Below are positions 1 to 17,253 of a DNA stretch of 64,000 nucleotides, piece after piece. Under the pieces are notes generated by a model. That model searched no databases, had not been told where the DNA came from, and saw only the letters and a list, made by a program, of their open reading frames with translations. A program made the translations under genes and the position numbers. Within the stretch, counting starts at the first letter, position 1; each line of letters opens with the position of its first letter. Origin of the DNA: an uncultured Verrucomicrobiae bacterium (GTDB lineage Bacteria; Verrucomicrobiota; Verrucomicrobiia; Limisphaerales; Palsa-1400). The stretch covers positions 768,001-832,000 of the forward strand of contig CAVXRD010000002.1 of the NCBI GenBank assembly GCA_963764165.1, read 5' to 3'.

Positions 1-1
1 G

Positions 2-406
2 GCGGACGCGACCTCAGCAAATAACGGCTGGGATCAAGCCATCGGAATCGCTCAAGACGTGGTCCGGGCCACTGGACTTTTTGACCTTCTCGGTGGCCTA
101 GGCATAGGAGCTCTTCCGAAGCCCTGTAACCTTCACCGTCCCTATATTCGGCAAGGGGTTATGGACGACGTAAAAGCTCGTGCGCCGCGAGCCCCAGATG
201 GCCGGTTTATTGATCCGAATACGCTGCAACCGACCGATGATCCTGTATTGGGTCACAAACCTGGATATGAGTTTTGGCGGTTGAAGGCAGCAGCAGAGGC
301 GGAAAATGTTTCCCAACAGATGTTTAATGAGACGCTAAACAATCCCGAATTTTACCAGATTGAAGACAAAGCGGTCAATGCAAGCCACCAATATGAACAA
401 CCGTAA
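2..406 (+). CDS. C-terminal toxin domain of a polymorphic (probably Rhs) toxin, GH-E family HNH/EndoVII nuclease; 5' end outside window
   Basis: Frame open from the window edge. Motifs LGHKPGYEF...NNPEFYQIEDKAVNASHQYE match the GH-E pattern. Overlaps a downstream immunity-type gene. Confidence 0.8.
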   Translation, partial: ADATSANNGWDQAIGIAQDVVRATGLFDLLGGLGIGALPKPCNLHRPYIRQGVMDDVKARAPRAPDGRFIDPNTLQPTDDPVLGHKPGYEFWRLKAAAEAENVSQQMFNETLNNPEFYQIEDKAVNASHQYEQP

Positions 407-902
407 ATCACAACATGAATTTCAAACTAACCATAATCTTCTCGCAGCCGTCGAAAAGAACGACATTCCAACAGTGCGACAACTGCTTGAAGCTGGCTAC
501 GACGCAAACGAGAGAGATCGGGGGATGAGCACGCCTCTCATGAGAGCTGCCTTTCACGGATACAGTGACCTATTAACATTATTGCTTGGCTTTGGAGCAG
601 ACGCGAATTTGGTAGACAAACTGGGCAAGACAGCCCTGCACTACGCGGCTCAGGAACAACACGAAACCGCAACCAAGATCCTTCTGGATGGCGGTGCCCC
701 GCTAAACGCTCAAGACAATTACGGCAATGCCCCTCTGCACAACGCAGTTTATTATTCGCTCGGTCGCGGAGCAACAATTAGATTGCTCCGTGAGCGTGGT
801 GCTAATGAAAACCTACAAAATGGCAGCGGCGTTACCCCGCTTGACCTTGCCAAAACGATCGCCAATTACGACGTGCTTCAGCATTTTGGTAACAAGAAGT
901 AA
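393..902 (+). CDS. Ankyrin-repeat protein, putative cognate immunity protein
   Basis: Ankyrin repeats (TPLMRAA, GKTALHYAA, GNAPLHNAV, GVTPLDLA). ATG 393 overlaps the toxin 3' end. Confidence 0.85.
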   Translation: MNNRKSQHEFQTNHNLLAAVEKNDIPTVRQLLEAGYDANERDRGMSTPLMRAAFHGYSDLLTLLLGFGADANLVDKLGKTALHYAAQEQHETATKILLDGGAPLNAQDNYGNAPLHNAVYYSLGRGATIRLLRERGANENLQNGSGVTPLDLAKTIANYDVLQHFGNKK

Positions 903-907
903 TAAGT

Positions 908-1288
908 GAACTGTACGAGCCAACCATAGCACGCGAGGTGCCATGAAAATGAACGCTGGCGCAGCATCCTCCTTCGCCAAGGCTGCGGCGGGACAAGTCT
1001 CGGCTGCGAAACACATCTGCGATTGCATGAAAGCTCACCTACGTCAGACTGAACACCCAAACCCCTTGCCCCCTCGTGGCGCTGTCTCGGTTAACCATGG
1101 GCTTTTCACTCTCGGTGCCCGGATTGTCTTCGGTAATGGATACGACTGCCCCAGCTATGTCGAACAACATCGTGCCGGATTGCAATGCGCGGCGCAACTG
1201 ATAAGCTTTTCGCCGCATGATTTGGCGCGTCATCATGTTCTGGTTATTGGCGGCATTTTCCGCCGTGGCCGATTTGCCGCGTCACTCC
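908..1288 (+). repeat. Inter-cassette direct repeat, copy 1 (leader plus signal-peptide segment)
   Basis: Begins GAACTGTACGAGCCAACC, ends in codons for MIWRVIMFWLLAAFSAVADLPRHS. Homologous to 4352, 5232 and 7654. Confidence 0.95.
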
Positions 1289-3712
1289 TCTCTTGGCTCT
1301 CTTCAAGTCGAGCAGTTCGCCTATAACGGGTTGGATGAACTGAACCTTCTCGCGGATGGCAACAGCCACACCACCTCGTGGGCATTTAATCAATACGGCT
1401 GGCGCATAGGAAAGACAAATGCCACCGGGACAAACATCATCAATTACACTCGCGATGCCAATGGCCGGGTGACAAATCGTTGGATGATGGGCACCAACAC
1501 CGGTTACAAGCTGGACGCGGTTGGCAACGTCACCAACATCGTCTATCCCGCCACCAACATTGCGATCGGGTATGACGCCGTCAACCGGCCAACCAACATG
1601 ATGGACATTTCGGGCACGGCTTCGTTTACCTGGACGCCGACCAGCCACTTAGCCAGCGAAACGGGGCTGTGGGCCAGCGATACCACCAGCTACGGATACA
1701 GCCAGGGCCACCGCACCAACCTGAACCTTTCCCAACCCTCCGGCTCATGGAACCAAACTTATCTCTACGACGCCGCCTGGCGCATGACTGGGATTGGTTC
1801 GCCCGCTGGAAGTTTCACATATCAATACGCTAGCGGGGCCAATCAATACAGGGTTGGCGGCATTCTTCTTCCCAACGGCGCGAGCATCGTCAACCAGTAT
1901 GACAACCTGAGCCGGCTGACCAACACGGCACTCCTCGATCATTGGGGCCATGTGCTGGATGGTTACGTTTATGGCTTGGACGCCCTCGGGCAAAAGACGA
2001 ACCTTACCCGCCAGCTTGGGCTATCTACAAACAATGTGGCGGCGGGTTACGACGCCATCGGCCAAATAACGAATTGGGCGGGAAAGGAAGCTGGCGGCGC
2101 GAATCGCCAGAACGAGCAGATGGCCTACGGTTACGATCTGGCCGACAACCTGATTTCCCGCACCAACAACGCGCTGGTGCAAACGTTCACGGTGGATTCG
2201 TTGAATCAGTTAAACAACGTGTCTCGCAGCGGCACCTTCACCGTGAGCGGCGCATTGCCTGCTCCACCCGCCAGCGTCACGGTCAACGGAGCCGCCGCGC
2301 AAACCAACGGAGACTTCACCTTTGCCGCGACCAACAACACGCTGGCCAATGGCAATAACACCTTCACCATCATTGCCGAAAATATTTATGGCACCAATGT
2401 GACCAACGTTCTCTCGGTGAATCTGCCCGCCACCGTCACATTTCAATACGACGCCAACGGAAATTTAACTAGCGACGGAACAAGAACATTCCAATACGAC
2501 GCGGAAAACCAACTGACCAACGTCAATGTGAGCGGCCAATGGCAGGTTGGCTACGTATATGACGGCTTGGGGCGTCGGCGCATCCGCCGGGCTTACGCGT
2601 GGCAAAGCGGCTGGTCGCTCACCAACGAAACCCGCTACATTTACGACGGCCCCTTGGTCATTCAGGAGCGCGACACTAACAATAACATCCTAGTCACTTA
2701 CACTCGCGGACTGGACTTGAGCGGCAGCTTGTTTGGGGCGGGAGGGATCGGGGGATTGCTGGCCCGCACCGACACGAATGGCACGCTGTATTATCACTGC
2801 GATGGCGGTGGAAACATCACCGCGTTGATGGACGAATACCAGAGGATCGTCGCCCGCTACGAGTATGATGCCTACGGGCGGCTGATCGGCATGTGGGGTT
2901 CGCTGGCCTCAGCCAACACCTATCGCTTTTCGAGCAAGGAATACGACGCGCTGTCGGGCCTCTACTACTACGGACACCGCTATTACGACCCCGCGCTGCA
3001 AAGGTGGCCAAATCCCGACCCGATTGGAGAGGCGGGAGGGATTAATCTTTACCGAGCTATGAGAAATAATCCAATGCGGTGGGTTGATCCGTTTGGATTG
3101 GACAACATGTACAACATGGCTGCTGGTAACAACGCCCCTCCTTCAATGGTCGTTTCGGCCAATCCATCTCTCGGCGAAGCACCTACGGTGACCTATCAAG
3201 GAAGTCAAGGGGATCTTTTCCTGATAGGTGAATTTAGCACGGCTGCCGGAACCGTGGCCGCAGCCTCTATCATGGGGCTTATCGCGGGCGGCGTTCCACC
3301 AGACCAAGCCATTATGCTTGTAGAGCAAGCGTATGAAAAACTAGTTAACAATGCGTCCCCGCAGCCATCTCAGAACAATTGCCCTAATAATACTTCGCCG
3401 ATTAAAACCCCGCTAATGGGAATGGCGAAACCTAACAATGGTGGAGGGCCACCACATGGAGGGAGTCTTCATGATCAAATGATAAACGATTTTATTGACA
3501 ACCTTCCGGACGAGGCGGATAATATCAGGAAAAATCAGCAGCAAGTGGACTTTTTCGGTAATCCCGTCGGCAACAATAGGCCGGACGTTCAATATGATTT
3601 GGATGGCGTGCATTATAACATCGAATTCGATATGAATTGGATGAAAAGCATTACGCATTTTGATGAAATATTTGAGAATGACTCGGTAAGTTCAATCGAA
3701 ATCCACTTTTAA
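1217..3712 (+). CDS. Rhs/YD-repeat toxin (N-truncated core with signal peptide), C-terminal putative PD-(D/E)xK-like nuclease
   Basis: YD repeats; Rhs core end PDPIGEAGGINLY...NNPMRWVDPFGL; CT from about 3101 with NQQQVD...NRPDVQY...NIEFD. Confidence 0.9.
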   Translation: MIWRVIMFWLLAAFSAVADLPRHSSLGSLQVEQFAYNGLDELNLLADGNSHTTSWAFNQYGWRIGKTNATGTNIINYTRDANGRVTNRWMMGTNTGYKLDAVGNVTNIVYPATNIAIGYDAVNRPTNMMDISGTASFTWTPTSHLASETGLWASDTTSYGYSQGHRTNLNLSQPSGSWNQTYLYDAAWRMTGIGSPAGSFTYQYASGANQYRVGGILLPNGASIVNQYDNLSRLTNTALLDHWGHVLDGYVYGLDALGQKTNLTRQLGLSTNNVAAGYDAIGQITNWAGKEAGGANRQNEQMAYGYDLADNLISRTNNALVQTFTVDSLNQLNNVSRSGTFTVSGALPAPPASVTVNGAAAQTNGDFTFAATNNTLANGNNTFTIIAENIYGTNVTNVLSVNLPATVTFQYDANGNLTSDGTRTFQYDAENQLTNVNVSGQWQVGYVYDGLGRRRIRRAYAWQSGWSLTNETRYIYDGPLVIQERDTNNNILVTYTRGLDLSGSLFGAGGIGGLLARTDTNGTLYYHCDGGGNITALMDEYQRIVARYEYDAYGRLIGMWGSLASANTYRFSSKEYDALSGLYYYGHRYYDPALQRWPNPDPIGEAGGINLYRAMRNNPMRWVDPFGLDNMYNMAAGNNAPPSMVVSANPSLGEAPTVTYQGSQGDLFLIGEFSTAAGTVAAASIMGLIAGGVPPDQAIMLVEQAYEKLVNNASPQPSQNNCPNNTSPIKTPLMGMAKPNNGGGPPHGGSLHDQMINDFIDNLPDEADNIRKNQQQVDFFGNPVGNNRPDVQYDLDGVHYNIEFDMNWMKSITHFDEIFENDSVSSIEIHF

Positions 3713-3722
3713 AGAGGTAAAT

Positions 3723-4343
3723 ATGTTTAACGGCTTTGAGGCTATACCAATTAATTGTCTTTGGGCAGAACCAGATAGCCTGATGGAATTTATTAGAGTA
3801 ATGAAATTAGAGAGTGGCTCTGAATGGAGCTTTGAGAAAAAGCCTTTAGATTTAAATAGTATCTACATTTCAGCTCCGCCTAAAGGCGGCGCGCACCTAC
3901 CGCGCTTTGCGGTTTGGCAGCCTAGCTGCATGTCGTTCGGCTCCGTTTTGATTGCTAATCACGAAGACGGACTTATTCAAACGATGCGGCATCTAAACAA
4001 AAGGCACGCAATTCCGTACTTTTCTGCCTTTCTCTCCCGCAATCATAGAAAGCAAGGCTTCTGCTATTTCGAGTATAGGGGCGAATCTCGGTCAGACCGG
4101 GTGGTATACGTCATACGCGACCCGAGATGGAAGTTCTTCGAAAAGGGCGGGAGGCTACCTTTTGAAAATCCTGAACGCTATGGGGCGAAGCGGATCGCAG
4201 ATCGCCTTACACCGTCCATTTTGGTCGAATATTTGAAGTCGCTCCATTGGAATCTCGAATCAGAAGATTTTTGGAAAAGCAAAAAGGACGCTTGGCTTGG
4301 ACGACGACTAAGCTTTAAAAGAGGACCGGTCGACATCCCATAA
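3723..4343 (+). CDS. Putative immunity protein for the 1217 toxin
   Basis: 10 nt after the toxin stop with a GAGG RBS; AT-richer; motif RWKFFEKG..LPFENPERY..KRIADRL resembles toxin-adjacent immunity proteins. Confidence 0.7.
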   Translation: MFNGFEAIPINCLWAEPDSLMEFIRVMKLESGSEWSFEKKPLDLNSIYISAPPKGGAHLPRFAVWQPSCMSFGSVLIANHEDGLIQTMRHLNKRHAIPYFSAFLSRNHRKQGFCYFEYRGESRSDRVVYVIRDPRWKFFEKGGRLPFENPERYGAKRIADRLTPSILVEYLKSLHWNLESEDFWKSKKDAWLGRRLSFKRGPVDIP

Positions 4344-4351
4344 AATAAACG

Positions 4352-4769
4352 GAACTGTACGAGCCAACCATAGCACGCGGGGTGCCATGAAAACGAACGC
4401 TGGCGCAGCATCCTCCTTCGCCAAGGCTACGGCGGGACAAGTCTCGGCTACGAAACACATCCCCAATTGGATGAAAGCTCGCCTACATCAAACTGAACAC
4501 CCAACCCGCCGTCGCTGCGCTATGGCGCGGCAAGACGCCTGCCCACCTCGTGGCGCTGGTTCCCTCGCCAAAGCTTTAGCGGCGGCGGGTGCCGGTCAAC
4601 CAAGGGCATTGTCGGAGGTTTTTCACTCTCGGTGCCCGGATCCTCTTCGGTAATGGATGCGACTGCTCCAGCTATGTCCGTAAGCATCATGCTGGATTGC
4701 AATGCGCGGTGCACCCGCTAAACTCAACTCCGCATGATATGGCGCGTCATTTTCTGCTGGCTGCTGGCG
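4352..4769 (+). repeat. Inter-cassette direct repeat, copy 2
   Basis: Near-identical to copy 4 over the first ~270 bp. Contains all three mini-elements. Confidence 0.95.
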
Positions 4770-4823
4770 CTGCATTCGCAGCGCGCCTTTGCGGGCGCAT
4801 GCACGGAAAGGGGTCGCACATAA
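4734..4823 (+). pseudogene. Leader-encoded signal-peptide ORF with no Rhs fused (29 aa)
   Basis: MIWRVIFCWLLALHSQRAFAGACTERGRT* read directly from the sequence. Confidence 0.55.
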
Positions 4824-4926
4824 CCACATATTTTGCGATTGACTGATCGAGAATGCAGCCGCAGCCTGCCATTCGCATAGCCGAGGATCACGCAATATGC
4901 TATTAAGTGGAACTGCCCCCTTTCTT

Positions 4927-5223
4927 ATGAATAATAGAAAAGAAGAGGTATTAGTGGCACTTCAGCAAGCGCTACTGGGCGAGGTTAGTGCTCGCTTGCG
5001 GGCGGTCACGGTTACTTACAACGAGACAAGCGTGCACTTTGATTGTTATTACGATGGAGAAATTGCCGAGGACGACCTGGAGTCAATGTCATGTGTGGAA
5101 GGTGAACTAATTGCTTGGTTTCCAGAAACCCATAAGGTTACATATCAGGTACATCGAAAAGATTATCCGACTTTGGTTCCTAAGGACAAAGTGTGCGCGT
5201 TTTATCGAAAGGAGCCTCTTTAA
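4927..5223 (+). CDS. Small acidic protein, putative orphan immunity protein
   Basis: Sits alone between repeat copies 2 and 3 in the immunity position (stop just before the repeat). No toxin upstream. Alternative start 4897. Confidence 0.65.
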   Translation: MNNRKEEVLVALQQALLGEVSARLRAVTVTYNETSVHFDCYYDGEIAEDDLESMSCVEGELIAWFPETHKVTYQVHRKDYPTLVPKDKVCAFYRKEPL

Positions 5224-5231
5224 GTGAATTT

Positions 5232-5571
5232 GAACTGTACGAGCCAACCATGGCACGCGAGGTGCCAAGGAAAAACGATTTGGCGCATGGAACAGCTTGT
5301 CGGCTACGAAACATATCCGGAATTGGATGAAAGCTCGCCCACCGCGTAGTGTTGTCCCGGTCAACCAGAGGCACCGTCGGAGGTTTTTTCACTCTCGGTG
5401 CCCGGATGGTCTTCGGTAATGGATGCGACTGCTCCAGCTATGTCGACCGACATCATGCCGGATTGCAATGCGCGGCGCAACTGTTAAACTTCTCACCGCA
5501 TGATTTGGCGCGTCATTTTCTGCTGGCTGCTGGCGACAACGTTCGCCCATGCCAGCCTTCCGCGCCATTCT
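5232..5571 (+). repeat. Inter-cassette direct repeat, copy 3 (shortest, no mini-elements)
   Basis: Same start motif and same 3' core. Ends in codons for MIWRVIFCWLLATTFAHASLPRHS. Confidence 0.95.
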
Positions 5572-7329
5572 GCCATGGGCTTGCGCACGAACATGACCCG
5601 GCAATTGGGCATGGCCATCAACAGCATCGCCATTGGTTACGACGGGATTTCTGAAGTGACCAGTTGGATCGGAAAGGAGACCACCGGACAGCCGCGCTGG
5701 AACGAACAGATCCATTACAGCTACGACGCGGCGGGAAACATGCTCTATCGAAGCAACAACTGGACTGTCCTTTCGATTGGCTCCTACAACAACATTAATG
5801 AGCCGAGCGATTATGTCACTTCCGGTTCATTTACCGCCGTCGGTTCCCTGAGCGCGCCCGCCACCAACGTCACCATCAACGGCTACGCCGCCGAGGTCTA
5901 CTCCGACCTGACCTTCGCGAATACGAATATTGCCATTGATTATTACCAGACCGGTTATTTCACCAACGTCGCCCAAAACATCTACGGACTCAAAACGACC
6001 AACCAATACGCCGTCACTTGGATCAATCCATTTGATTACAATCCAGACGGCTCGACGGACGGCGCCTCGTCGATTTATTTCACCTATGATGAGTTTGGCC
6101 ATGTGGCCGACATCTCCTATGGGGACGCATCCGGCTACCACTACGCGCAATTGACCTGGGATGGCCTGGGCCGGTGCCGCAGTGTGCAGTATTATACCTT
6201 GACCAACGATTCCACTGGCAACTGGTGGGTGGGGCCGTTCAATCAAGTCCGGTATATTTACGACGGAATGGCCGTGGTGCAGGAGCGGGATTCCAACAAC
6301 ACGCCGCTGGTCACCTATACCCGCGGATTGGACATGAGCGGGAGCCTGCAAGGAGCTGGAGGAATAGGCGGATTGCTGGCCCGCACCGACAGCAACGGCC
6401 CGGCTTTCGATCACGCTGATGGGAACGGCAATGTCACCGCCCTCATGGACAGCTACCAGCGCATCGCGGCGCGATATGAATATGACCCGTATGGAAGGCT
6501 GCTGGGCAAATGGGGCCGATTGGCAGATGCCAACACCTACCGGTTTTCGAGCAAGCAATATTTCCAGGCCTTCGGCATGTATAACTTTGACTGCCGCTTT
6601 TACATGCCAGAAATGGCTCGCTGGCCAAATCCAGACCCGATTGGAGAAGCAGGCGGGATTAACCTTTATGGGTTTGTTGGGAACAATCCCGTCAACTTTG
6701 TCGATACTTTTGGCTTAACTACTTATTACCGAGAAACTCCATTCAACCAAGATCAAGCCGGCTCGTATGGGCCATACTCCTTTACTGTCGACGACGGCTC
6801 CGACAACGCAGAATATTCAAGTTGGACCACTGACCCTGAGTTTTTCGGTAACGATGCGATGGAGACGCAGGACGGGATGCTCATGGCTATGGTTGCACCT
6901 ATAGCCGACCCTGTCGGAATGGCCTTTGGCGCGGCCTTTGAATTTCTTTCGAAACCTATCGCGGACGCCCTCGAGTCCCTCGGTTTGCGAAAGCCTCCCA
7001 TTCCAAAAACGCCTAAAGCGTCTCCGTGTCCGGTATCAATTAAACCTGAGCCCAAGATCACCCTTTATCGTCAGGGAAATCCTAACACCGTTTATTCCCC
7101 CACCAGAGCTACATCGTTAAGCAAGAGCCCCGACCTGATGCATTACGATCCGAAAGGCCAGCTTTTGCAATTTGAAATTCCTCAAAGCGTTTACAATCAG
7201 TGGATGAAGGATGGTCTAATTGATACCTACAGCGACCTTCACGCACTCTCAGGAATAATCACATCAGAAGTGAAAGTTTTGCCACCAGCATCTGGACAAC
7301 TGAATCAATATCAAGTTAAACCTCAATGA
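5500..7329 (+). CDS. Rhs toxin (more strongly truncated core with signal peptide), C-terminal putative ADP-ribosyltransferase-like domain
   Basis: Rhs core end PDPIGEAGGINLYGFVGNNPVNFVDTFGL; CT from about 6718 with TLYR...TSLS...SEVKV. Confidence 0.88.
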   Translation: MIWRVIFCWLLATTFAHASLPRHSAMGLRTNMTRQLGMAINSIAIGYDGISEVTSWIGKETTGQPRWNEQIHYSYDAAGNMLYRSNNWTVLSIGSYNNINEPSDYVTSGSFTAVGSLSAPATNVTINGYAAEVYSDLTFANTNIAIDYYQTGYFTNVAQNIYGLKTTNQYAVTWINPFDYNPDGSTDGASSIYFTYDEFGHVADISYGDASGYHYAQLTWDGLGRCRSVQYYTLTNDSTGNWWVGPFNQVRYIYDGMAVVQERDSNNTPLVTYTRGLDMSGSLQGAGGIGGLLARTDSNGPAFDHADGNGNVTALMDSYQRIAARYEYDPYGRLLGKWGRLADANTYRFSSKQYFQAFGMYNFDCRFYMPEMARWPNPDPIGEAGGINLYGFVGNNPVNFVDTFGLTTYYRETPFNQDQAGSYGPYSFTVDDGSDNAEYSSWTTDPEFFGNDAMETQDGMLMAMVAPIADPVGMAFGAAFEFLSKPIADALESLGLRKPPIPKTPKASPCPVSIKPEPKITLYRQGNPNTVYSPTRATSLSKSPDLMHYDPKGQLLQFEIPQSVYNQWMKDGLIDTYSDLHALSGIITSEVKVLPPASGQLNQYQVKPQ

Positions 7330-7655
7330 TGAGCGTATTCAAAAGCAAAGACATATTCTGCTGTGCTGGTTTCAAAAATCGGATTGAGGCCGCTGGCGGG
7401 CGCGGAATTGCGATTCTAGCGAATCAAACTGCAACTGGAGTTATATTTCTACTGCAGTCGCGTGGAATTGCGTTCGAAGATGTAAAAAGAATTGAACCAA
7501 ATTCCGATTTGCCAGACATTACGATAAACGTTTCCTACGAGGTAGGACTTCAATACTGTCCATGGTGCGGTCGTCAACTTCAAGAGCTAGTTGATGCTTC
7601 GCCAGCGGCCTTCGAGCAGCTCGCGAACAACAATAGATGCTTTTTGATGAAGTGA
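7326..7655 (+). CDS. Putative immunity protein, Cys-motif (CC...CPWCG)
   Basis: ATGA overlap with the toxin stop. FCCAGF and YCPWCG suggest zinc binding. Confidence 0.72.
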   Translation: MMSVFKSKDIFCCAGFKNRIEAAGGRGIAILANQTATGVIFLLQSRGIAFEDVKRIEPNSDLPDITINVSYEVGLQYCPWCGRQLQELVDASPAAFEQLANNNRCFLMK

Positions 7656-8091
7656 ACTGTACGAGCCAACCATAGCACGCGGGGTGCCATGAAAACGAAC
7701 GCTGGCGCAGCATGCTCCTTCGCCAAGGCTACGGCGGGACAAGTCTCGGCTACGAAACACATCCCCAATTGGATGAAAGCTCGCCTACATCAAACTGAAC
7801 ACCCAACCCGCCGTCGCTGCGCTATGGCGCGGCAAGACGCCTGCCCACCTCGTGGCGCTGGTTCCCTCGCCAAAGCTTTAGCGGCGGCGGGTGCCGGTCA
7901 ACCAAGGGCATTGTCGGAGGTTCTTTCACTCTCAACGCCCGGATCGTCTTCGGTAATGGATGCGACTACTCCAGCTATGTCGACCGACATCATGCCGGAT
8001 TGCAATGCGCGGAGCAACTGATAAGCTTCCCGCCGCATGATTTGGCGCGTCATTTTCTGCTGGCTGCTGGCGACAACGTTCCACGCCATTC
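7654..8091 (+). repeat. Inter-cassette direct repeat, copy 4 (terminal, empty)
   Basis: Overlaps the immunity stop codon. Leader ORF 8037-8210 runs into unrelated sequence. Confidence 0.95.
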
Positions 8092-8161
8092 CGCATTCGC
8101 AAGATTCTCCTCCCTTGACCGATTCAACTCGGCAGCGTGAAGGTCCAGCCCGAGAACCGCG

Positions 8162-8650
8162 TCAGACCAGTTCAAGCATATCGGCTTCCAATTTCACGGC
8201 GGCGGCCTGATTGATGAAATCCAGGCGCAAAATGACCGTGCTCATTCCGAGCCTTTTCTCCACCCAGCCTTCGATTCCCTGCAAGGGACCCGCTTTGATG
8301 CGGACCCTCTTGCCTTCTTCGATGGCCGGCGCCAGGGACACGCCGAGCTTGGCATCAAGGGCCAGCAGAATATCGCCCAATTGCCTGCTGAACGTTTCCT
8401 GGTCGAAGACGGTGAGCAGATTGGCAATATGATCGCTCTGCCGGACCGAGTCCGCCTGGGATCGCTCGCAGCGAATAAACACATAGCCTGGGAACAAGGG
8501 CTTCTCGAAGACCACCGTTTTCCCGCGGTATTTATGGGCGGACTCGAAGCACGGGAGCACTGCGGAAATGGAATTCCGCCTGCAAAACTCAGCAATCTTC
8601 TTTTCGCGGCGCGGCCGGGCGTGCGCAACGAACCAGTTCATTTCTGACAC
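8162..8650 (-). CDS. NusG-paralog transcription antiterminator (UpxY/RfaH-like)
   Basis: NGN domain WFVAHARPRREKK...PLFPGYVF plus KOW motif GKRVRIKAGPLQGIEG. Confidence 0.92.
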   Translation of the reverse strand: MSEMNWFVAHARPRREKKIAEFCRRNSISAVLPCFESAHKYRGKTVVFEKPLFPGYVFIRCERSQADSVRQSDHIANLLTVFDQETFSRQLGDILLALDAKLGVSLAPAIEEGKRVRIKAGPLQGIEGWVEKRLGMSTVILRLDFINQAAAVKLEADMLELV

Positions 8651-8747
8651 GATTCCAAAAAAGTACGAGGGTTGGGTAGAAAGTCAACGAGGCAATACCT
8701 TAATCGCGGGGAGCCGCGTCCAGAATTCGGCGATTTGCGAGGGTCTT

Positions 8748-8777
8748 ATAGGCCGAATAGGTCGCAGAGGACCCATA
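8748..8777. repeat. Short degenerate 9-bp tandem repeat
   Basis: ATAGGCCGA ATAGGTCGC AGAGGACCC ATA, intergenic. Confidence 0.45.
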
Positions 8778-8800
8778 CGATTGATTTTCCACAGGCCCGG

Positions 8801-11800
8801 TCATTTTCCCTGCAAAGCGCGCAGTTCGCGGGTCACGTTGGTAAATTCAACCGCGTCGGTTCTGGCGTAATCAAGGTACAGCTTGTCGTAGCGGATTTGC
8901 GCTTCCTTGTCGTGAGTTGCCTTGGCGACTTTGGCCAATCCGTCGTAGACGAGGGAGGAAGGAGCCGGCAGCTGCTTTTCCAAAACCAAAAAATCCTCGC
9001 GGGAGGCGTCGAAGCGGTGCAGTTCAAATTCGGAAATCGCCCGGTTTAGCCGCGCCGAGGTGTTTTTCGGGTCGCGTTCAAGAAGGCCGCCAAGCGTCGC
9101 GATGGCCGCCTGATAATCCTTCATGGTCATCTCGACCTCGGCCTTGCTGAGCGTCGCATCGCTGATCTCATCGGGTTCGGCGCCGGAGGCGTTCAAGATT
9201 TTCAATTGGTCGGCGGTTGCCTGAACCGCCTTGGCGAACCAGCGCGCCGCTTCCTTCTGAAATTCGCCCTTGCCGGGCGCCGATTTGATTTCCTCCCGCA
9301 GCATGAAATAGCCCATGCGCCGGTAGAACTCGGCCATCACGCCCAGGAACCTGGCATTGCCAGGATCTTTCGCGCGCTCATCTGTCAATAATTTTTCAGC
9401 GGCCGCGAAGTCCCTTTTCGTGGCATAGGCCAGCGCTTCCACGCGAATCAACTCGAGCGGGCTGCCGGTGAACCCGGCGCGCGCGCTGCCCAATAATTTC
9501 AACGCCGCGTCCGGCTGGTTCAAATCAATGTAGGTCTTGGCCAGGTTCAACTCGCCATCCGGATCTTTGGGCGAAAGCTCGAGGCAGCGCTGAAACATGT
9601 GGGCGGCCTGAATGGGAAGGTTGCGATAACCGAAAAACTCCCCGACCCGATTATTCAGGGCGGGCGTGTCTGGCGGGCCCATCAAGTTAAGCGCGTAATC
9701 CCACCGTTGAAATATTCGCGCTGAAAATTCCGTGACGCTGAGCGGCGGCTCAGAGTCTGGAATGCCACGCATTTGCAAGTTAAATTGCAGATTGGCCTTT
9801 GCCATGATGTTATCGGGGTTCAACCGCAGCGCTTCCTGGAATTGATCGGCGGCGTCCTTCAATAAAGAGCTTTTGTCCCCGTCCGAAATGCGAAGGCCCG
9901 CGGCCTCCTTTTGCAGTTCGGTTCCCCAGTAATCGAGGCATTGGGAGTAATAAGTTGCGATCAACCGAGCGTTGGCGTTTTTCTTCGCCACTTCCGGCAG
10001 CGGCCGGAGTGCATCCTTTTCCAAGGCGTGCCAAAAAGCCTGGTTTGTCCCAATATCCGCCCGAGACAGCAGCAGCGTGGCCAGGGCATTGGTGGGATCC
10101 GGCAACACAATCCCACCCATCCGATGCGGTGCCATGAAGACGCGTTCGAAACGATTGCCAAAACCGGGGTGCAAGTAATACACGGGCTCGCGGCCGGCGA
10201 GGTGCGCTAAAAAGTTGCCTACCGCCACGTCGCTGATCTCATCGCGCAAGTTTTCAGTGTCGCCAATCTCCTTCTTAAATGACGGATAATGCTCGGCCAG
10301 ATAGCGGACGTACTGGATGTAATTCAATTCGGGGCTCTCGACAAAGACGTAGTGCGACGGCAATCCGAGGCGTCGGCAGGCGTCCATCGCGAGGTAAAGC
10401 CGGGTGGAATCATCCGCCATGACAATCCCAGGTTTCGCCGGCAGCGTGCGGGCCAGTTCGTCCGCGAATTCCGAGACGATCGGTTTGTCAAATTCCCGGA
10501 TGTGCGCAAAATTGATGCACGCCAGCGCGACTGGCGCCGCGATCGCTCCAATCCACAGCGCCACTGCGGTCGTTAAGTTGCCATTCCGCAGCACTCCGCG
10601 CGGCTGGCCCCAATGATATGAAAGATCCTTGGCGAAAAAGAAAAAAACGTGGCCGAAAAAGTAGCCGACGCACAGCGCCGCCATATAATAGAAGCTCAGA
10701 TATGTTGGAGGGCCCAGCAACCCCGCGGAAAAACGCGCCCTGGGGCTTGGGCTGATTTCGATATCAAAAAACATCAACACGCTGATGACCAGAAACGCGA
10801 TGTGAAGGAGCCGAAACAGGAGGCGGGTGTAAACATCCGTAACGTTTCGAAATTCGATATTGAATGACGGCCAGCCAGTGAAGGCGAAGACCAGCGCAAT
10901 GACGCTCGGCAGCCCGGAAACGGCAAAATAGTAATGCGGAGTCCGATGGAGAAGATAGTGCTGCTGCCCCAGCCATTGGTGCATCAAATCCCAGAACTTT
11001 CCCTCATCGCGCATCGCGCCAAGCGCGGGATTCAGGATGTAGAGGCCAAGCCCCATCACCAGGCAAACGATCATGACGAGGAGGCATCGCCAATTCACGC
11101 TCCATGCGGTCCGAATCCACCCAAAAACCGCCCCCACCTTGGTCTTGAATGCCGCCAAGGTGGTGAACCAAATCGGCGTGTAGCCGCCGGTCGGCAGGGC
11201 CTCGAAATAGATCGGGCTCAACATGAACCAAGCCAGCCAGATAAGAAAAAAGGGCGCGTATCCGATCAGGCTCCAGTCATTGGCCAAGCCGACGCCGTAA
11301 ACGAATGAAAACGCAAACAGCCAATGGTTCTTTTTCGAAACGCGGAATTCCAGCAGGCATTCTATAAGAAAAGCAAAAATTAGAAGATCAACCATTTCGC
11401 CCGTGCCGGAAACCGCATTCTCCCAAAACGTGAGCTGCGCTCCAAGCAACACGACCGCCAGCCCGGCAGCCAGGAAAGATCCGCGCACCGCCACTTGAGT
11501 CCACTTCGCACTTTCCATCAACCGCAACTCTTTCGTCCGGTCCCGAAAAAGCAGCGTTTTGTTGTGGGAGATTACCGAGCCGAAATATGCGAACAACTGC
11601 CCGAACACCTTCTCCCGCTGCTCCGGCGTGCGGTCATGGGAAAGGAGGCGCACCGAACGGGCCAGAATCGCCAGGGTCAGCGACGCGCAAAGGGCCATGA
11701 ACAAGTTCAGCCCGATCACCTGCGCCCCGGCCGGCAGCCACCGGAACGGATACGTCAAGATGAAGCAAAGCGGCTGAAAATTGGGCGCCGCCCGCCAGAG

Positions 11801-12120: not shown

Positions 12121-15100
12121 TTACTTGCAGGTGAACGAACTGCTGCTCGAGAAGGATCCGCAATAGTTGTTGCCGCCATAGCCGCAACCGCCGCCTTGGC
12201 AGCCCGACTTGCAGTTTTCCGGCGTGCCGGCGCAGTCGTTGTTATTATATCCGCAGTAATTCTGCTGGCAGGCCTTCACGGAAACTGAGCCGCAATTGCT
12301 CAAGTTCTGATTGTAGCAGGCCGCGCCCCATTGCCAGGCGCAATTCACGTTGGTCGTGCTGCAGCTAAACGTGCCCGTCCAGCAGACCGATTTGCAGTTC
12401 GCGAAATCGGAATTCCAAGGAATTCCAGTGCCGCAAAGGAAAGCCTGGCTGTCGCCAGCCGAGGGAATCGTCGTGCTCCATCCGCTCCCGGTATAATAAG
12501 CGCTGCCGGACGAGCAGTTGGTGTATTCCACCTGGCAGTTCGGAACGGGATAGTTATAGACTTTGCCACTGGCTCCCGTGATCGTGATGGTCGCGTTCTG
12601 GCAGTAAACCGTGCATGACTTGCCTGGGTTCGCGGAAAGATGCGCATTGCACCAGAGGTAACCGCCATACGGGTTGCAGGAGTTGAAGTTGCCGCAGATG
12701 GTGTTCGTCGTTCCCTTGGTGGTGACGGCGGTGACGACTGAAGCCGTGTTGGTGGCTGACGCCCCGCTGGCCACAGAGCCAATCGCGGAAGCCACATTCG
12801 TCAATTGGCAGACATTCGAGCCCACCGTGTAATTATACGCAAATGTATAGCCTTGTCCCGACGCCACATTGGTCTTCGTGAAGATCGTGCCGCCGAGGAG
12901 CGCATCGACCACAGTCAAATTCTCCGCGCTCTGACCCACGTTGGTCACGGCAAACGTGTAGGTGATGACCGAGCCGATCGGCGCGCAGGTGGGACCCGAG
13001 AGGGTCAGACTCACAGCAGGCGGAGGTTGCACTACCACTGTCACCGTGCTCGATGCGGATAAGCCAGCCGTGTTGGTGATGGAGTATTGGAAGATCACCG
13101 TTCCAGAAAACCCACCCGTGGCCGTGAAGACAAGGTTTGTGCCCGATCGGACCACCGAGCCAGTGCCGCCAGAGGGCTGGCTGAACGTCGCAATGCCAAT
13201 CTTGAGCGCCGGGCTATTGCCATCCGAATCGTGGGATAGCACATTAATGGTGACTGGAGGAGCGCCTTCCTGCGTCGTTACAGTTACCGGGTTGGCCACC
13301 GGAGGCAGAGGTGTCACAGTGACAGTCACAGTGGAGCTCGCACTCAACCCCGCCGAGTTGGTGATCGAATAGGCGAACACAGATGTTCCAACAAAGCCCG
13401 ATTTGGGAGTGAACACGAGGTTGCCGCCGGATTGCGTTACGGTTCCATTGGTTGGCTGGGCGAAGCTTGAGATGGCAATCGGCAGCGCGGGGCGATTCGG
13501 GTCGTAGTCGTTGCCCAGCACACTGATCGTGACCGCGGAATTTTCAGCAGTCGAGGCCGAATTAGGAGTCGCGACAGGGGCCACTGGGCAGGCGCTGAAC
13601 GAGCAATAGCCCGATCCAGTCCAGTTGCCGCAGTAATTGTTGCCACCGTATCCGCAGCCGCCAGCCTGGCAGTTGGGTTTGCAATTCTCAGGCGTGCCAG
13701 CGCAGTCGGCGGAGGAATAATAGCCTTGATAGTTGCCCCAGCCTCCCCAATTGCCGTAGTTGCCCCAGCCGTTGCCGTAGCTGCCGCCGTATCCGCAAGC
13801 GGTCTGGTAGCAGGCCTTGACGCCAAAGCCGTTGTAATTAGTGAGGTTAGTGTTGTAGCAGGAACTGCCCCACTGCCAACTGCAGCTAACCCCGGGGGTA
13901 TCGGAGCAGAACGTGCCCGTCCACGAGACGGATTGGCAATTGGCAAAGGCCGATTGCCACGGAATGGCGCAGCCAGAGAGGAAAATCTGGCTGTCACCGT
14001 AGGACGGCGCGAACGTGTTCCAGTTCGTTCCGTCATACAGGCAGTTGCCGGTTGTGTTGGTTTGGTTAAAGATAATTTTGCCGTTCGGCACCGGATAGGT
14101 GTAGCTCTTGCCGTTCGAGCAGTTCAGTGTGATCGACGCATTCTGGTAGTAAATAGCGCAATTCTGCCCCGGTGTCGCCGCGATATGGGCGTTGAACCAC
14201 ACGCAACCGTTGTTGGGATTGCAGGAATTGAAGCTGCCATAAATCTGGCTGGTCACGCCCGCAGTCGTAATGGCCGTAATCGCCGTTTGAGTATTGGTGG
14301 CGGACAACCCGTTCGCCTGAACCACAATCGCCGAGGCGGTGTTCGTCACGAATCCCGAGCTAAGCGACGTTGCGTAGGTGTTGGTGAACACGAATCCAAC
14401 GCCAGCCGCCACATTCGTCTTCGAGAAGATTGTTCCGCCGAGCAACGGATCAACGACGGTCAGGTTGACGCTGACGGAATCGGTATTCGTGACGGCATAC
14501 ACGTAAGAGATGGTGCCATCGCAAACCACCGTTGGGGGCGCTGTCAAATTCAAGACCACGGTCGGAAGCGACGTCACCAGCACCGTCACAGTTGTTGTTG
14601 AGGCCAGGCCAAGTGTGTTCGTAATCGTGTAATTAAAGGTCGCGGCGCCCGCGAAGCTCGAGTTGGGTGAGAAGACGAGGTTCGTGCCGGAAAGCGTTAC
14701 CGTTCCTTCGGACGCCACAGCCGGCTGGGTATAGCTCGAGATTGCAATCGGAAGTGCAGGCGAATTCTGGTCGTAATCGTTGGCCAGCACCGAGATCGAA
14801 ACCGGCACGCCGCCTTGAGTTGAAGCGCTGTCGGCAACCGCGACCGGTGGCAGCGGCGGCGGCGTCACCACCACCGTCACGATGCTGGTGGAGGACAATC
14901 CAGCCGAATTCGTGATCGTGTATTGGAAGGACACTGTTCCGGTAAAACCCGTTGCAGGCTTGAAGAGCAGGTTCGTGCCAGAATAAGAAACCACGCCTTG
15001 GCCGGTCGGTTGATTAAAGCCCGAGATCAAAATGGGAAGCATCGGTGAATTCTGATCCGTATCATTCGCCAGCGAATTGATGACAACCGGCGTGTTTTCC

Positions 15101-16845
15101 GTCGTCGTCGCCGCATCAGGATTAGCGAGGGGCGGCCCAATCACAGCCACGGTCACTGTAGCCGAGGCAGTGAGGCCGGACGCATTTGCAACCGAGTAGG
15201 TAAAGGTGGTAACGCCAAAGTAGCCGCCGTAGGGGGTGAACACGATGATGTTTCCGACCATCGAGACCGTGCCGCCTGCCGGCTGGGAGGCAGTCGTCAG
15301 CGATACCGTCTGCGCTGGCTTGTTCGGATCGCTCACATTCGTCATTACATTGATGCTCACGGGAACCCCTTCAAAAGTGGTGGCAGTCACTGGACCCGCG
15401 ACCGGCGGCTGCGATACCGGCGTTACGACAACGGTTACGGTGCTCGTCGCCGTCAACCCTGCCGAGTTGGCGATTGTATAGGGGAACGTGGCGATCCCAG
15501 TGAATCCCAAGTTCGGTGTAAAGACTAAAACCGGAACCGGATTGCCAAGCCCCCCGAGAAGCTCACTCGTAGACACGATGATGCCATTGGGTGTCGTGCC
15601 ATTGCCGGTGGATGCAATCGGAAGCGCAGGCGAATTCTGGTCGTAATCGCCGGAAAGAACATTGATGGTGACAGGGGTGTTTACAGGAGTGGACACGACG
15701 ACCGGATTGGCCGCCGGCGGAAGAATGCCTGAACCACCGCCCGCTGCAGTCGAATTCACGTATGCGGCCGCGCCTGGCTTCAGCTTTGCAATCAATGCAA
15801 CCAGCGTAAGATCATCGTCTTCGAAACCCGTGGTAATGGTGAGATTGTTGAGTCCAGGCGTAAGAAACGGGACAATGTTGTAGTTATTTATATCCCACAA
15901 GCTGCCGGTGAAGAAAGAATAGCGGAAACCGCTGCTTTCGTCATACGGGGACGCTCCCCAAAAAATTTGGCCGATGAGCTGTCCCGTGCTAAGGCTGACC
16001 ACTGGGTTGGACGGCGCGAGAACCTGGCCGTTCAGATAAACGGCTGTTTCCAAATACTGGAGCTGGCCGTCGCCGACGTGGAATTCCAAGTCAATGCCGT
16101 CGCCGGTGGAATAGCTGACACCGGGGATCGTCACAGACCAGCCGAGCGGGTCGTAGGCATTCGCGCTATTTTCATCGCAACCGTTCTCGATCACAATGTC
16201 ATTCTTGTTGGTATTAGCCGGATCGTTGTAAATGACAACCAAAGACGCGCCCTCCAGGCCTGCGCCGGTCCCAAACCCACCATCACCCGACCCAAATGGA
16301 TCCGCGTAAGAAATAACATAATCGCCCCCGCCATTGACGAGGTCGGTCACGTCGGCGCGGTATGCCTGGCTGAAAATGAAGTTAAATGGCGCGGAGCCCC
16401 AGCTGTCGACGCCCGAAATACCGATGCAGTCGCCCGTAACTTGGTAATTAGTGATGGTCGCGCCCAGCGGCAGGGCGGAAATGTAGTGGAAGGACGAATC
16501 GGGGTCATTGACGAATGTGTAGCTATATAGGTTGGTGTCGCCCGTTTCGCTCGACATCCAGATGGTGCCGTTGGTGTTGCCGCCAGTTTCTTCATAACCG
16601 AGATCAACGCCGCCGCCAAAGCCGAACCAATACAGATAGGCATGCTGCACCGAACCCGCCGGGACATTGGTCAAGTGTAGCGTGCCGTAGCCCACTTCAC
16701 GCAATCCGCCTACCCCGCACGAAGAGTAGTTGACGTTGGTGAAAGTTTGGAAATAAGTCAGAACCGTTGCATCGGCACGGAAGCTGCTAAATAATGCAGT
16801 CGTCAGGAGCAGGAGGCTCGACAGAAGAACTCTGATATTACGCAT
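12121..16845 (-). CDS. Large secreted surface protein: N-terminal beta domain, six Ig-like (Big_9/cadherin-like) repeats, two DUF11-like domains, two Cys-rich domains
   Basis: Signal peptide; repeats PPvA.pd..sT..n.pV.InVL.ND.D; ITYTFAVTN...TVVD.LLGG twice; duplicated Cys-rich domain. Confidence 0.85.
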   Translation of the reverse strand: MRNIRVLLSSLLLLTTALFSSFRADATVLTYFQTFTNVNYSSCGVGGLREVGYGTLHLTNVPAGSVQHAYLYWFGFGGGVDLGYEETGGNTNGTIWMSSETGDTNLYSYTFVNDPDSSFHYISALPLGATITNYQVTGDCIGISGVDSWGSAPFNFIFSQAYRADVTDLVNGGGDYVISYADPFGSGDGGFGTGAGLEGASLVVIYNDPANTNKNDIVIENGCDENSANAYDPLGWSVTIPGVSYSTGDGIDLEFHVGDGQLQYLETAVYLNGQVLAPSNPVVSLSTGQLIGQIFWGASPYDESSGFRYSFFTGSLWDINNYNIVPFLTPGLNNLTITTGFEDDDLTLVALIAKLKPGAAAYVNSTAAGGGSGILPPAANPVVVSTPVNTPVTINVLSGDYDQNSPALPIASTGNGTTPNGIIVSTSELLGGLGNPVPVLVFTPNLGFTGIATFPYTIANSAGLTATSTVTVVVTPVSQPPVAGPVTATTFEGVPVSINVMTNVSDPNKPAQTVSLTTASQPAGGTVSMVGNIIVFTPYGGYFGVTTFTYSVANASGLTASATVTVAVIGPPLANPDAATTTENTPVVINSLANDTDQNSPMLPILISGFNQPTGQGVVSYSGTNLLFKPATGFTGTVSFQYTITNSAGLSSTSIVTVVVTPPPLPPVAVADSASTQGGVPVSISVLANDYDQNSPALPIAISSYTQPAVASEGTVTLSGTNLVFSPNSSFAGAATFNYTITNTLGLASTTTVTVLVTSLPTVVLNLTAPPTVVCDGTISYVYAVTNTDSVSVNLTVVDPLLGGTIFSKTNVAAGVGFVFTNTYATSLSSGFVTNTASAIVVQANGLSATNTQTAITAITTAGVTSQIYGSFNSCNPNNGCVWFNAHIAATPGQNCAIYYQNASITLNCSNGKSYTYPVPNGKIIFNQTNTTGNCLYDGTNWNTFAPSYGDSQIFLSGCAIPWQSAFANCQSVSWTGTFCSDTPGVSCSWQWGSSCYNTNLTNYNGFGVKACYQTACGYGGSYGNGWGNYGNWGGWGNYQGYYSSADCAGTPENCKPNCQAGGCGYGGNNYCGNWTGSGYCSFSACPVAPVATPNSASTAENSAVTISVLGNDYDPNRPALPIAISSFAQPTNGTVTQSGGNLVFTPKSGFVGTSVFAYSITNSAGLSASSTVTVTVTPLPPVANPVTVTTQEGAPPVTINVLSHDSDGNSPALKIGIATFSQPSGGTGSVVRSGTNLVFTATGGFSGTVIFQYSITNTAGLSASSTVTVVVQPPPAVSLTLSGPTCAPIGSVITYTFAVTNVGQSAENLTVVDALLGGTIFTKTNVASGQGYTFAYNYTVGSNVCQLTNVASAIGSVASGASATNTASVVTAVTTKGTTNTICGNFNSCNPYGGYLWCNAHLSANPGKSCTVYCQNATITITGASGKVYNYPVPNCQVEYTNCSSGSAYYTGSGWSTTIPSAGDSQAFLCGTGIPWNSDFANCKSVCWTGTFSCSTTNVNCAWQWGAACYNQNLSNCGSVSVKACQQNYCGYNNNDCAGTPENCKSGCQGGGCGYGGNNYCGSFSSSSSFTCK

Positions 16846-17113: not shown

Positions 17114-17253
17114 ATTCTATTTAGAATTGCTTGACCCGAAACTGAAAGGGCGGGTATGATTTGCGTTCATATTGGATTTTATTTCCAGATAACGATAGTG
17201 GCCAACGAGAAGGTACGAGCGAAAACCGCTCGGCCTTAGCCACTTCCCCGTCC

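Follow-up and report, generated by a model that had tools for sequence, protein, structure and literature searches.

The Rhs array analyzed here lies within a 64,000-nucleotide stretch of DNA (the window) from an uncultured Verrucomicrobiae bacterium of the order Limisphaerales (contig CAVXRD010000002.1, positions 768,001 to 832,000) and is a polymorphic toxin array in which a repeated cassette places a promoter and a signal-like peptide in front of truncated toxin genes. Four copies of this cassette, r1 to r4 (beginning at 907, 4351, 5231 and 7653), are located at or just after the stop codon of a small (immunity) gene, with DNA related to the main, full-length rhs gene on the 3' side of each; the preliminary description of this DNA cited two of the copies. 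Behind r1 and r3, the peptide runs in frame into short Rhs proteins, which we denote mini-Rhs 1 and mini-Rhs 2 (Table 1). The reading we favor, if only at about even confidence, is that the repeat represents a portable cassette for expression and export, which would turn orphan Rhs modules into Sec-exported mini-toxins. The cassette anatomy, the frame bias, the selection on the peptide, the retention of the Rhs core and the swapping of toxin tips, on which this reading builds, are directly observed.

Under this scenario, a cassette located directly behind an immunity gene would contribute a Sec signal of 18 residues, together with the sigma70-like promoter and near-leaderless ATG for its expression; duplicated rhs DNA would land behind the cassette and be shortened by deletion, and the junctions that keep the frame would be retained. 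The transcribed and translated product would be exported via Sec with cleavage of the signal, and would consist of a shell too short to close, a self-cleaving core that is intact and a tip, with the immunity gene following; it might then pass the outer membrane, undergo autoproteolysis and act on neighboring bacteria, while the mini-Rhs scaffolds would swap tips like full-length polymorphic toxins. The persistence of toxin fragments in orphan modules has no settled explanation; the work cited below casts these fragments as reserves that are silent, as banks of immunity genes or as toxin-antitoxin (TA) pairs acting inside the cell. In the present case, orphans have come to carry a promoter together with an export signal that is under selection, making it testable whether a cell deploys several tips at once, and the system also lets one ask whether the Rhs shell is needed for export or delivery.

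Table 1. Features of the Rhs array (window coordinates)
Feature	Positions	Strand	Remarks
Main full-length Rhs, 3' end	2..406	+	1826 aa; ATG upstream of the window at L001:12926
Ankyrin-repeat immunity gene of main Rhs	360..902	+	putative immunity role, from position
Cassette r1, module A	907..1179	.	left end sharp at immunity stop; non-coding, indel-rich
Sigma54-like site TGGCAC-N5-GTGC	928..943	-	putative; outward-facing, antisense into immunity gene
r1 sigma70-like promoter	1180..1216	+	TTGCAA 1180-1185, TAAGCT 1202-1207, 9 nt to ATG
r1 signal-like peptide	1217..1270	+	18 residues; predicted cut AVA/D
Mini-Rhs 1	1217..3712	+	831 aa: signal, linker, Rhs, Ig-like insert, core, 204-aa tip
Sigma70-like match	3495..3523	+	11/12; inside mini-Rhs 1 tip, 200 nt 5' of immunity gene
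Putative immunity gene of mini-Rhs 1	3723..4343	+	206 aa, no family match
Cassette r2	4351..4823	+	promoter intact, ATG 4734, stop at codon 30
Orphan immunity-like gene	4897..5223	+	no intact toxin upstream; putative role, from position
Cassette r3	5231..5574	+	shortened module A; TTGCAA 5463-5468, TAAACT 5485-5490
r3 signal	5500-5553	+	LPRHSA continues to 5574
Mini-Rhs 2	5500..7329	+	609 aa: signal, Rhs, core, 204-aa tip
Putative immunity gene of mini-Rhs 2	7326..7655	+	109 aa; start overlaps toxin stop
Cassette r4, degenerate	7653..8164	+	ATG 8037 behind an intact promoter; a short frame-shifting deletion disrupts the signal

Predicted promoter and signal peptide of the cassette

The constant part of the cassette has the form TTGCAA-N16-TAnnnT-N9-ATG, with a near-leaderless start, and continues into the consensus peptide MIWRVILFWLLGAxLAxA/DLPRH. 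Across 26 in-frame copies, the letters of the -35 element TTGCAA are kept in 20-24 and the T, A and T of the -10 element in 23, 25 and 23, respectively, with a partly variable spacer (diversity 0.54). This conserved promoter, predicted to be sigma70-like, would drive transcription of the fusions; together with the near-leaderless ATG, it extends the preliminary description. Genome-wide, TAnnnT is enriched 6-9 nt 5' of the ATG (87, 32, 51 and 57 vs about 22, over 2435 long open reading frames, ORFs), and a Shine-Dalgarno (SD)-like motif is found in only 234 of these ORFs; some Verrucomicrobia are listed as SD-scarce (PMC10783764). Truncated cassettes, with a stop at codon 19, lie immediately 5' of moaC in L031, L051, L073 and L078, where they may have been captured as the moaC promoter, and similar fixed remnants lie 5' of a SurA-like gene (L063, L094). 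Inserted within the cassettes are GC-rich short palindromic repeats of the CTTCGCCAAGGCTACGGCGG type (window 960-1000, 4400-4445, 4505-4590 and 7700-7900), which recur elsewhere in the genome.

The ORFs that start at 1217 and 5500 have, as initially described, the N-termini MIWRVIMFWLLAAFSAVA/DLPRHS and MIWRVIFCWLLATTFAHA/SLPRHS. Selection on this peptide had been argued from seven synonymous differences between r1 and r3 (I6, L10, L11, L20, R22, H23, S24); the count is exact, but codons 1-24 also contain seven non-synonymous differences that went unmentioned (codons 7, 8, 13, 14, 15 and 17, and D19S), and two copies alone do not suffice. The conclusion nevertheless stands once more copies are compared, as the preliminary description had proposed: for the 22 copies that are colinear (another 4, whose c-region differs, were left out), the ratio of non-synonymous to synonymous polymorphism (pN/pS) across codons 2-19 amounts to 0.35 when read in the ATG frame vs 0.98 and 1.38 in the other plus frames, and over codons 11-19, which were fixed by no search pattern, 0.47 vs 1.11 and 1.16. 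The frame of the peptide is, then, under protein-level selection. Another reading frame open across the repeat is ruled out by pN/pS values of about 1-1.4 and by stops. Because CGC is near-invariant at codon 4, the data suggest some constraint at the DNA level, too.

What is maintained resembles the basic, hydrophobic, AxA-ending signal that was originally proposed, with a basic n-region (R4), a hydrophobic stretch (8-residue hydropathy 2.7-2.8), Ala or Val at -3 (position 16) in 22 of 22 copies, Ala at -1 (position 18) in 21 of 22, encoded by four codons, and a free position 17. Small residues at -3 and -1 with a free -2 are the pattern recognized by signal peptidase I, and the predicted peptide conforms to the Sec/signal peptidase I layout of basic n-region, hydrophobic h-region and small -3/-1 residues, as scored by a purpose-made heuristic. 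In the database, the 5500 protein (P0001) is entered from residue 26 onward, so that the signal is lost, an annotation trap for signal-bearing mini-Rhs.

Rhs fusions behind the cassette

DNA of r3 matches 17 of 61 related genomes. The exact cassette pattern recovers 31 metagenome loci and 10 loci in a species-genome collection, 9 of which are titled Verrucomicrobiota or Limisphaerales, the tenth being a short contig titled otherwise; a pattern with one mismatch matches 8 of 401 genomes of the order. Three of these one-mismatch matches, from other families (L082, L083, L089), failed the promoter/peptide filter and are outside the set of starts analyzed below. On a 2976-nt contig titled Bifidobacteriaceae (L041), which is probably mis-binned, the cassette occurs together with a mini-Rhs whose start is that of metagenome locus L057. 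The plasmid collection yielded no cassette match, and a match in a viral contig (L126) was dismissed as a chance one, lacking promoter, signal and Rhs. In the genome itself, outside the window, there is no further full repeat, only a 50-nt match to the left end on contig C4, with an immunity-like gene before it and an Rhs remnant after it. The genome has another two Rhs loci, on C4 (L002:9694-12919) and on C1 (L003:3878-12308), both fragmented and without the signal cassette.

Relatives and metagenomes together provide 47 distinct cassette starts, of which 26 run in frame into Rhs and 2 (L068, L081) out of frame, with 19 lacking an Rhs match. The preliminary description held that in-frame fusion at the chance rate, about one third, would speak against its proposal; the observed 26 of 28 is far above that rate. 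When three groups with shared junctions are merged, independent junctions number 19 in frame vs 2 out (P = 8e-8), or 19 vs 3 if r4 is counted as out of frame (P = 4e-7). Decayed out-of-frame copies may escape detection; copies that stop early did match the same patterns. The 19 starts without an Rhs match take in r2, r4, a contig end, truncated copies 5' of unrelated genes, and L039, which is a deletion derivative of an in-frame fusion (compare P0125).

In the window, entry into Rhs occurs at about residue 1010 of the main protein behind r1 and at about residue 1241 behind r3; when the two proteins are aligned, residue 25 of the one from 5500 pairs with residue 256 of the one from 1217. The claim that each gene enters mid-core directly after the signal holds for the alignment, with the correction that, in the 1217 gene, a short linker of about codons 25-30 precedes the Rhs sequence. 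The DNA of mini-Rhs 2 is 77% identical to main rhs. In r2, the peptide is fused in frame, within the hydrophobic stretch, to the signal region of the main gene (4760-4805, 93% over 46 nt), and r4 is followed by a 31-37 nt Rhs remnant corresponding to main residue ~745, out of frame. Judging from r2 and r4, the grafting invoked in the preliminary description was probably no targeted insertion but a duplication followed by deletion, with frame-keeping outcomes selected.

Both mini-Rhs score above cut-off with PF05593 and TIGR03696, and both contain the PxxxxDPxG motif, as DPFG at residue 627 of mini-Rhs 1 and as the variant DTFG at residue 405 of mini-Rhs 2, where cleavage is predicted. The motif is preceded by ~610 residues in mini-Rhs 1 and ~390 in mini-Rhs 2 vs 1621 in main Rhs; from these lengths, the shell would be open and would not completely enclose the tip. 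Across loci, the core ends are scattered, at residues ~106 to 627 and beyond. Core pN/pS is ~0.14-0.25, a value that cannot decide between models because one fusion (L030a) is 95% identical to the local full-length gene.

The tips of the two mini-Rhs are unrelated, each with a small gene adjoining, and have no Pfam or NCBIfam match. As leads only, Atlas points to an ADP-ribosyltransferase-like tip in mini-Rhs 2 (0.88) and, for mini-Rhs 1, to unnamed clusters near Tox-REase families (0.85-0.87), that is, a restriction-endonuclease-like tip. Pfam nuclease tips were detected in 6 of 24 proteins scanned, and tip matches in relatives include LHH, GH-E, HNH, NucA/B, colicin E5 and Tox-REase-9. In five families with shared junctions, the scaffolds are 58-96% identical and the tips mostly unrelated (16-29% identity); conversely, P0007 and P0021 carry one tip (99%) on scaffolds that are 63% identical. 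In 14 of 16 fused loci checked, the start of a putative immunity gene falls between -11 and +10 nt from the stop of the toxin gene, none being found in the other 2. A longer Rhs lies upstream of the mini-Rhs in 12 of 16 rows, with no match in 4, 2 of which have less than 700 nt upstream; at L032, the unit stands beside a tRNA, with no Rhs within 6 kb upstream.

A protein search that used no DNA pattern (query, the r3 core; lengths 334-1066) gave a similar picture: 26 of 118 non-self top matches pass the signal heuristic, one probably falsely, vs none of 4682 internal windows taken as control. Ten of these 26 signal-bearing short Rhs have MIWRV-type starts. Core scores of signal-bearing and control matches are indistinguishable (median 273, n=18, vs 279 bits, n=31; p=0.66), with 8 signal-bearing matches that lack the core regular expression standing outside the comparison. 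A second signal type, MRRLLSVLCLFCCGLACA/SLPRD, with P0036, P0058 and P0103 among its carriers, is probably related to the MIWRV type, to judge from intermediates that score 19-21 bits vs 11.5 for the best control, with P0036 and P0058 at only 10-11 bits; a DNA pattern for it gave 3 matches in 401 genomes vs 6 for the reversed control. Other signal-like starts are joined mid-core to short Rhs in P0039, P0064, P0068, P0075, P0079, P0096, P0114 and P0119, and are possibly independent cassettes of the same kind. That the cassette signal is the native N-terminus of a full-length Rhs was considered and set aside: none occurs among 20 matches of 71-2000 aa (longest 831), a weak result given that only 8000 candidates were scored, nor in the cassette loci (longest 889).

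Known systems and competing explanations

Orphan CDI (contact-dependent inhibition) and Rhs modules have generally been described as having neither start nor signal (PMC3150448), and in S. suis, a WapA orphan that lacks a signal mediated no competition (PMC12704120). As in orphan rhs-CT/rhsI and cdiA-CT/cdiI modules, a truncated core, a putative toxin tip and a putative immunity gene are arrayed downstream of a full-length gene, and tips are interchangeable (PMC3150448, PMC12704120); the mini-Rhs, too, lie downstream of a full-length rhs/immunity pair and lack its N-terminus, as classical silent orphans do. They differ from these modules in that a repeated cassette provides a conserved promoter, an ATG and a signal in frame. 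Salmonella Typhimurium Rhs-CT/RhsI orphans are expressed as type II TA modules, with promoters located in the core (PMC7043789), and share with the present system the (here predicted) expression of orphan toxin and immunity protein without recombination into the main gene. In Salmonella, however, the promoter is part of the rhs core itself, at a distance of 89 nt 5' of the PxxxxDPxGL codons, and the toxin is described as acting in the producing cell (PMC7043789), whereas here, promoter and start are in a separate intergenic repeat that includes a Sec-type signal, and 100-600+ core residues are kept. Like Sec-exported Rhs/WapA toxins, the mini-Rhs combine YD repeats and an Rhs-associated core with a predicted signal peptide, a variable, putatively toxic tip and a putative immunity gene, but the former are full-length and take the signal from their own N-terminus (PMC12704120, PMC3482391), whereas those in the window take it from the repeat and lack ~60-75% of the pre-cleavage region. 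In the Aravind survey, secretion markers tell active toxins from cassettes (PMC3482391); autocleavage occurs at DPxGL (bioRxiv 2024.02.26.582050), and another preprint (bioRxiv 2026.07.13.738213) deals with type VI secretion system (T6SS) loci.

The main texts covered by our literature search, which took in few subscription papers, describe no repeated promoter-plus-signal cassette on orphan modules. TcB/TcC form a cocoon split between two chains. Similarity to the core is apparent, and in both cases a C-terminal Rhs part with a self-cleaving core is a separate polypeptide; TcC, however, begins at a single fixed point and is paired with a dedicated gene for the N-terminal part, whereas mini-Rhs starts vary widely and the junctions are scattered.

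Several observations weigh against an export cassette. An E. coli-type promoter scan did not include the cassette promoters among its matches, and the signal heuristic also passes 530 of the 2435 long ORFs. The starts without an Rhs match mostly stop early, microhomology puts some of the junctions in frame (r2, LPHA group), the in-frame fusions L028, L043, L072 and L075b stop before the core, and the tip of L030b is only 31 aa long. The core residues of mini-Rhs 2 have drifted (DTFG; 264 bits vs 288 for the main gene), and the low core pN/pS may result from gene conversion by the main gene. Furthermore, the tips are mostly nucleases that act in the cytoplasm, and we know of no route by which an open Rhs shell would enter a target cell.

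The strongest competing explanation, which we nonetheless consider on the unlikely side, is that the cassette serves the expression of orphan immunity genes, so that export through the signal would only remove a toxic product from the cytoplasm; in-frame translation through the toxin fragment would avoid polarity and couple translation to that of the immunity gene, the fragment itself serving only as a recombination reserve. The close spacing of toxin stops and immunity starts and the paucity of SD-like motifs both favor this possibility, as do the intact r2 promoter ahead of an orphan immunity-like gene that has lost its toxin and the expression of orphan immunity proteins in E. coli EC93 (PMC3150448). 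Against it, the cognate immunity protein should neutralize the tip already, mini-Rhs 1 has a separate promoter match within its tip, the long fused cores are open and score like the controls, and the unit at L032 stands alone. The original proposal that orphan fragments are converted into exported mini-toxins is supported in part, by the selected frame, the signal peptidase I pattern and the in-frame excess, with the detoxification alternative standing beside it.

Two further explanations fit worse than either the export cassette or immunity expression. It seems improbable that the mini-Rhs shell is completed in trans by N-terminal parts of full-length Rhs or by a secreted partner, in the manner of the two-chain TcB/TcC cocoon, borrowing the main delivery route: the main and the mini proteins would both use Sec, and most of the mini-Rhs are downstream of a longer Rhs, but, because the junctions are scattered, no fixed partner piece fits all of them, and L032 has no main gene nearby. 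Equally poor are the prospects of a selfish or neutral repeat, akin to a miniature inverted-repeat transposable element, or of the 5' end of a lost gene, with the in-frame excess due to microhomology and to faster decay of out-of-frame copies; the occurrence of module A at unrelated 3' ends, its sharp left and ragged right boundaries and the truncated cassettes 5' of moaC and other genes would be in keeping with such an origin, but protein-level selection with the -3/-1 rule, the detection of unfused copies by the same patterns and the absence of a full-length protein with the cassette signal among the 20 matches or in the loci speak against it.

The export cassette admits a bolder extension, which we put forward tentatively, with distinctly less confidence: a mobile activation cassette would spread in Rhs arrays and give rise to a second toxin class, shell-less, Sec-exported, tip-swapping mini-Rhs parallel to the main toxin, with the structured upstream part and the outward sigma54-like site acting on the immunity gene upstream, through an antisense or a mobility function.

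The upstream module and the genomic surroundings

Module A, the upstream part of the cassette, spans 250-280 nt, is variable, occurs in two related types and is almost absent in L075; it is also found alone, at non-Rhs sites such as the 3' ends of purC and ribD. Its left end is sharp and its right end ragged. Frequent indels rule it out as coding DNA. On the minus strand, where it reads best, a long-range helix can be drawn in which the pair set is 98% paired, with changes on both sides in 6 of 13 pairs, a covariation reached in none of 500 shuffles, the structure having been derived from the same alignment (A7). The TGCCA end of the sigma54-like site is found in 31 of 53 heads, and rpoN is present in the genome. 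Module A is a candidate for an uncharacterized structure, in RNA or in single-stranded DNA, that would lie antisense to the 3' end of the upstream gene; Rfam 15 gave no match over the repeat in window positions 1-9000 (one chance match, E=1.2, lies elsewhere) or in 12 loci. An integron attC site was rejected by eye, given the length of ~250 nt and the absence of a GTT right end, the integrase not having been searched for. No autonomous element is found beside the cassette copies inspected, the comparison of transposase ends not having been run; the sharp left end presumably resembles those of non-autonomous elements derived from IS200/IS605 or IS91.

In one genome, module A is split by group II intron sequence at two loci (L023:1-1473, L037:9955-10040), the former with an Rfam D1D4-7 match and a reverse transcriptase-like ORF, the latter with a domain-V-like sequence recognized by eye. 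ORFs that we take to be REP (repetitive extragenic palindrome)-associated tyrosine-transposase-like lie near Rhs fragments and element copies in several genomes (L004:7979-12414, L032:8921-9409, L038:10129-11079 and L037:6866-7786).

The main Rhs has its own signal-like start (MKATKAKL...RAFA), unlike the cassette signal, and a GH-E HNH nuclease tip. Full-length Rhs genes here likewise have signal-like starts, and the genome encodes five secretins, with one T6SS sheath gene elsewhere; Rhs proteins in this genome look Sec-dependent. On the 5' side of main Rhs is a secreted-looking partner ORF of ~500 aa (L001:11314-12903) with weak thrombospondin- or pilus-like matches, and L034 has a signal-bearing ORF at the same place. 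A NusG/RfaH-like gene (window 8162-8650, minus strand) ends at the r4 remnant, and polysaccharide-synthesis genes flank the Rhs array on both sides (L001; window 21450-57932). Between these lie two divergent genes, one for a 1574-aa surface protein with Ig/cadherin repeats (12121-16845, minus strand) and one for a 1404-aa passenger-repeat (PATR) protein (17161-21375, plus strand).

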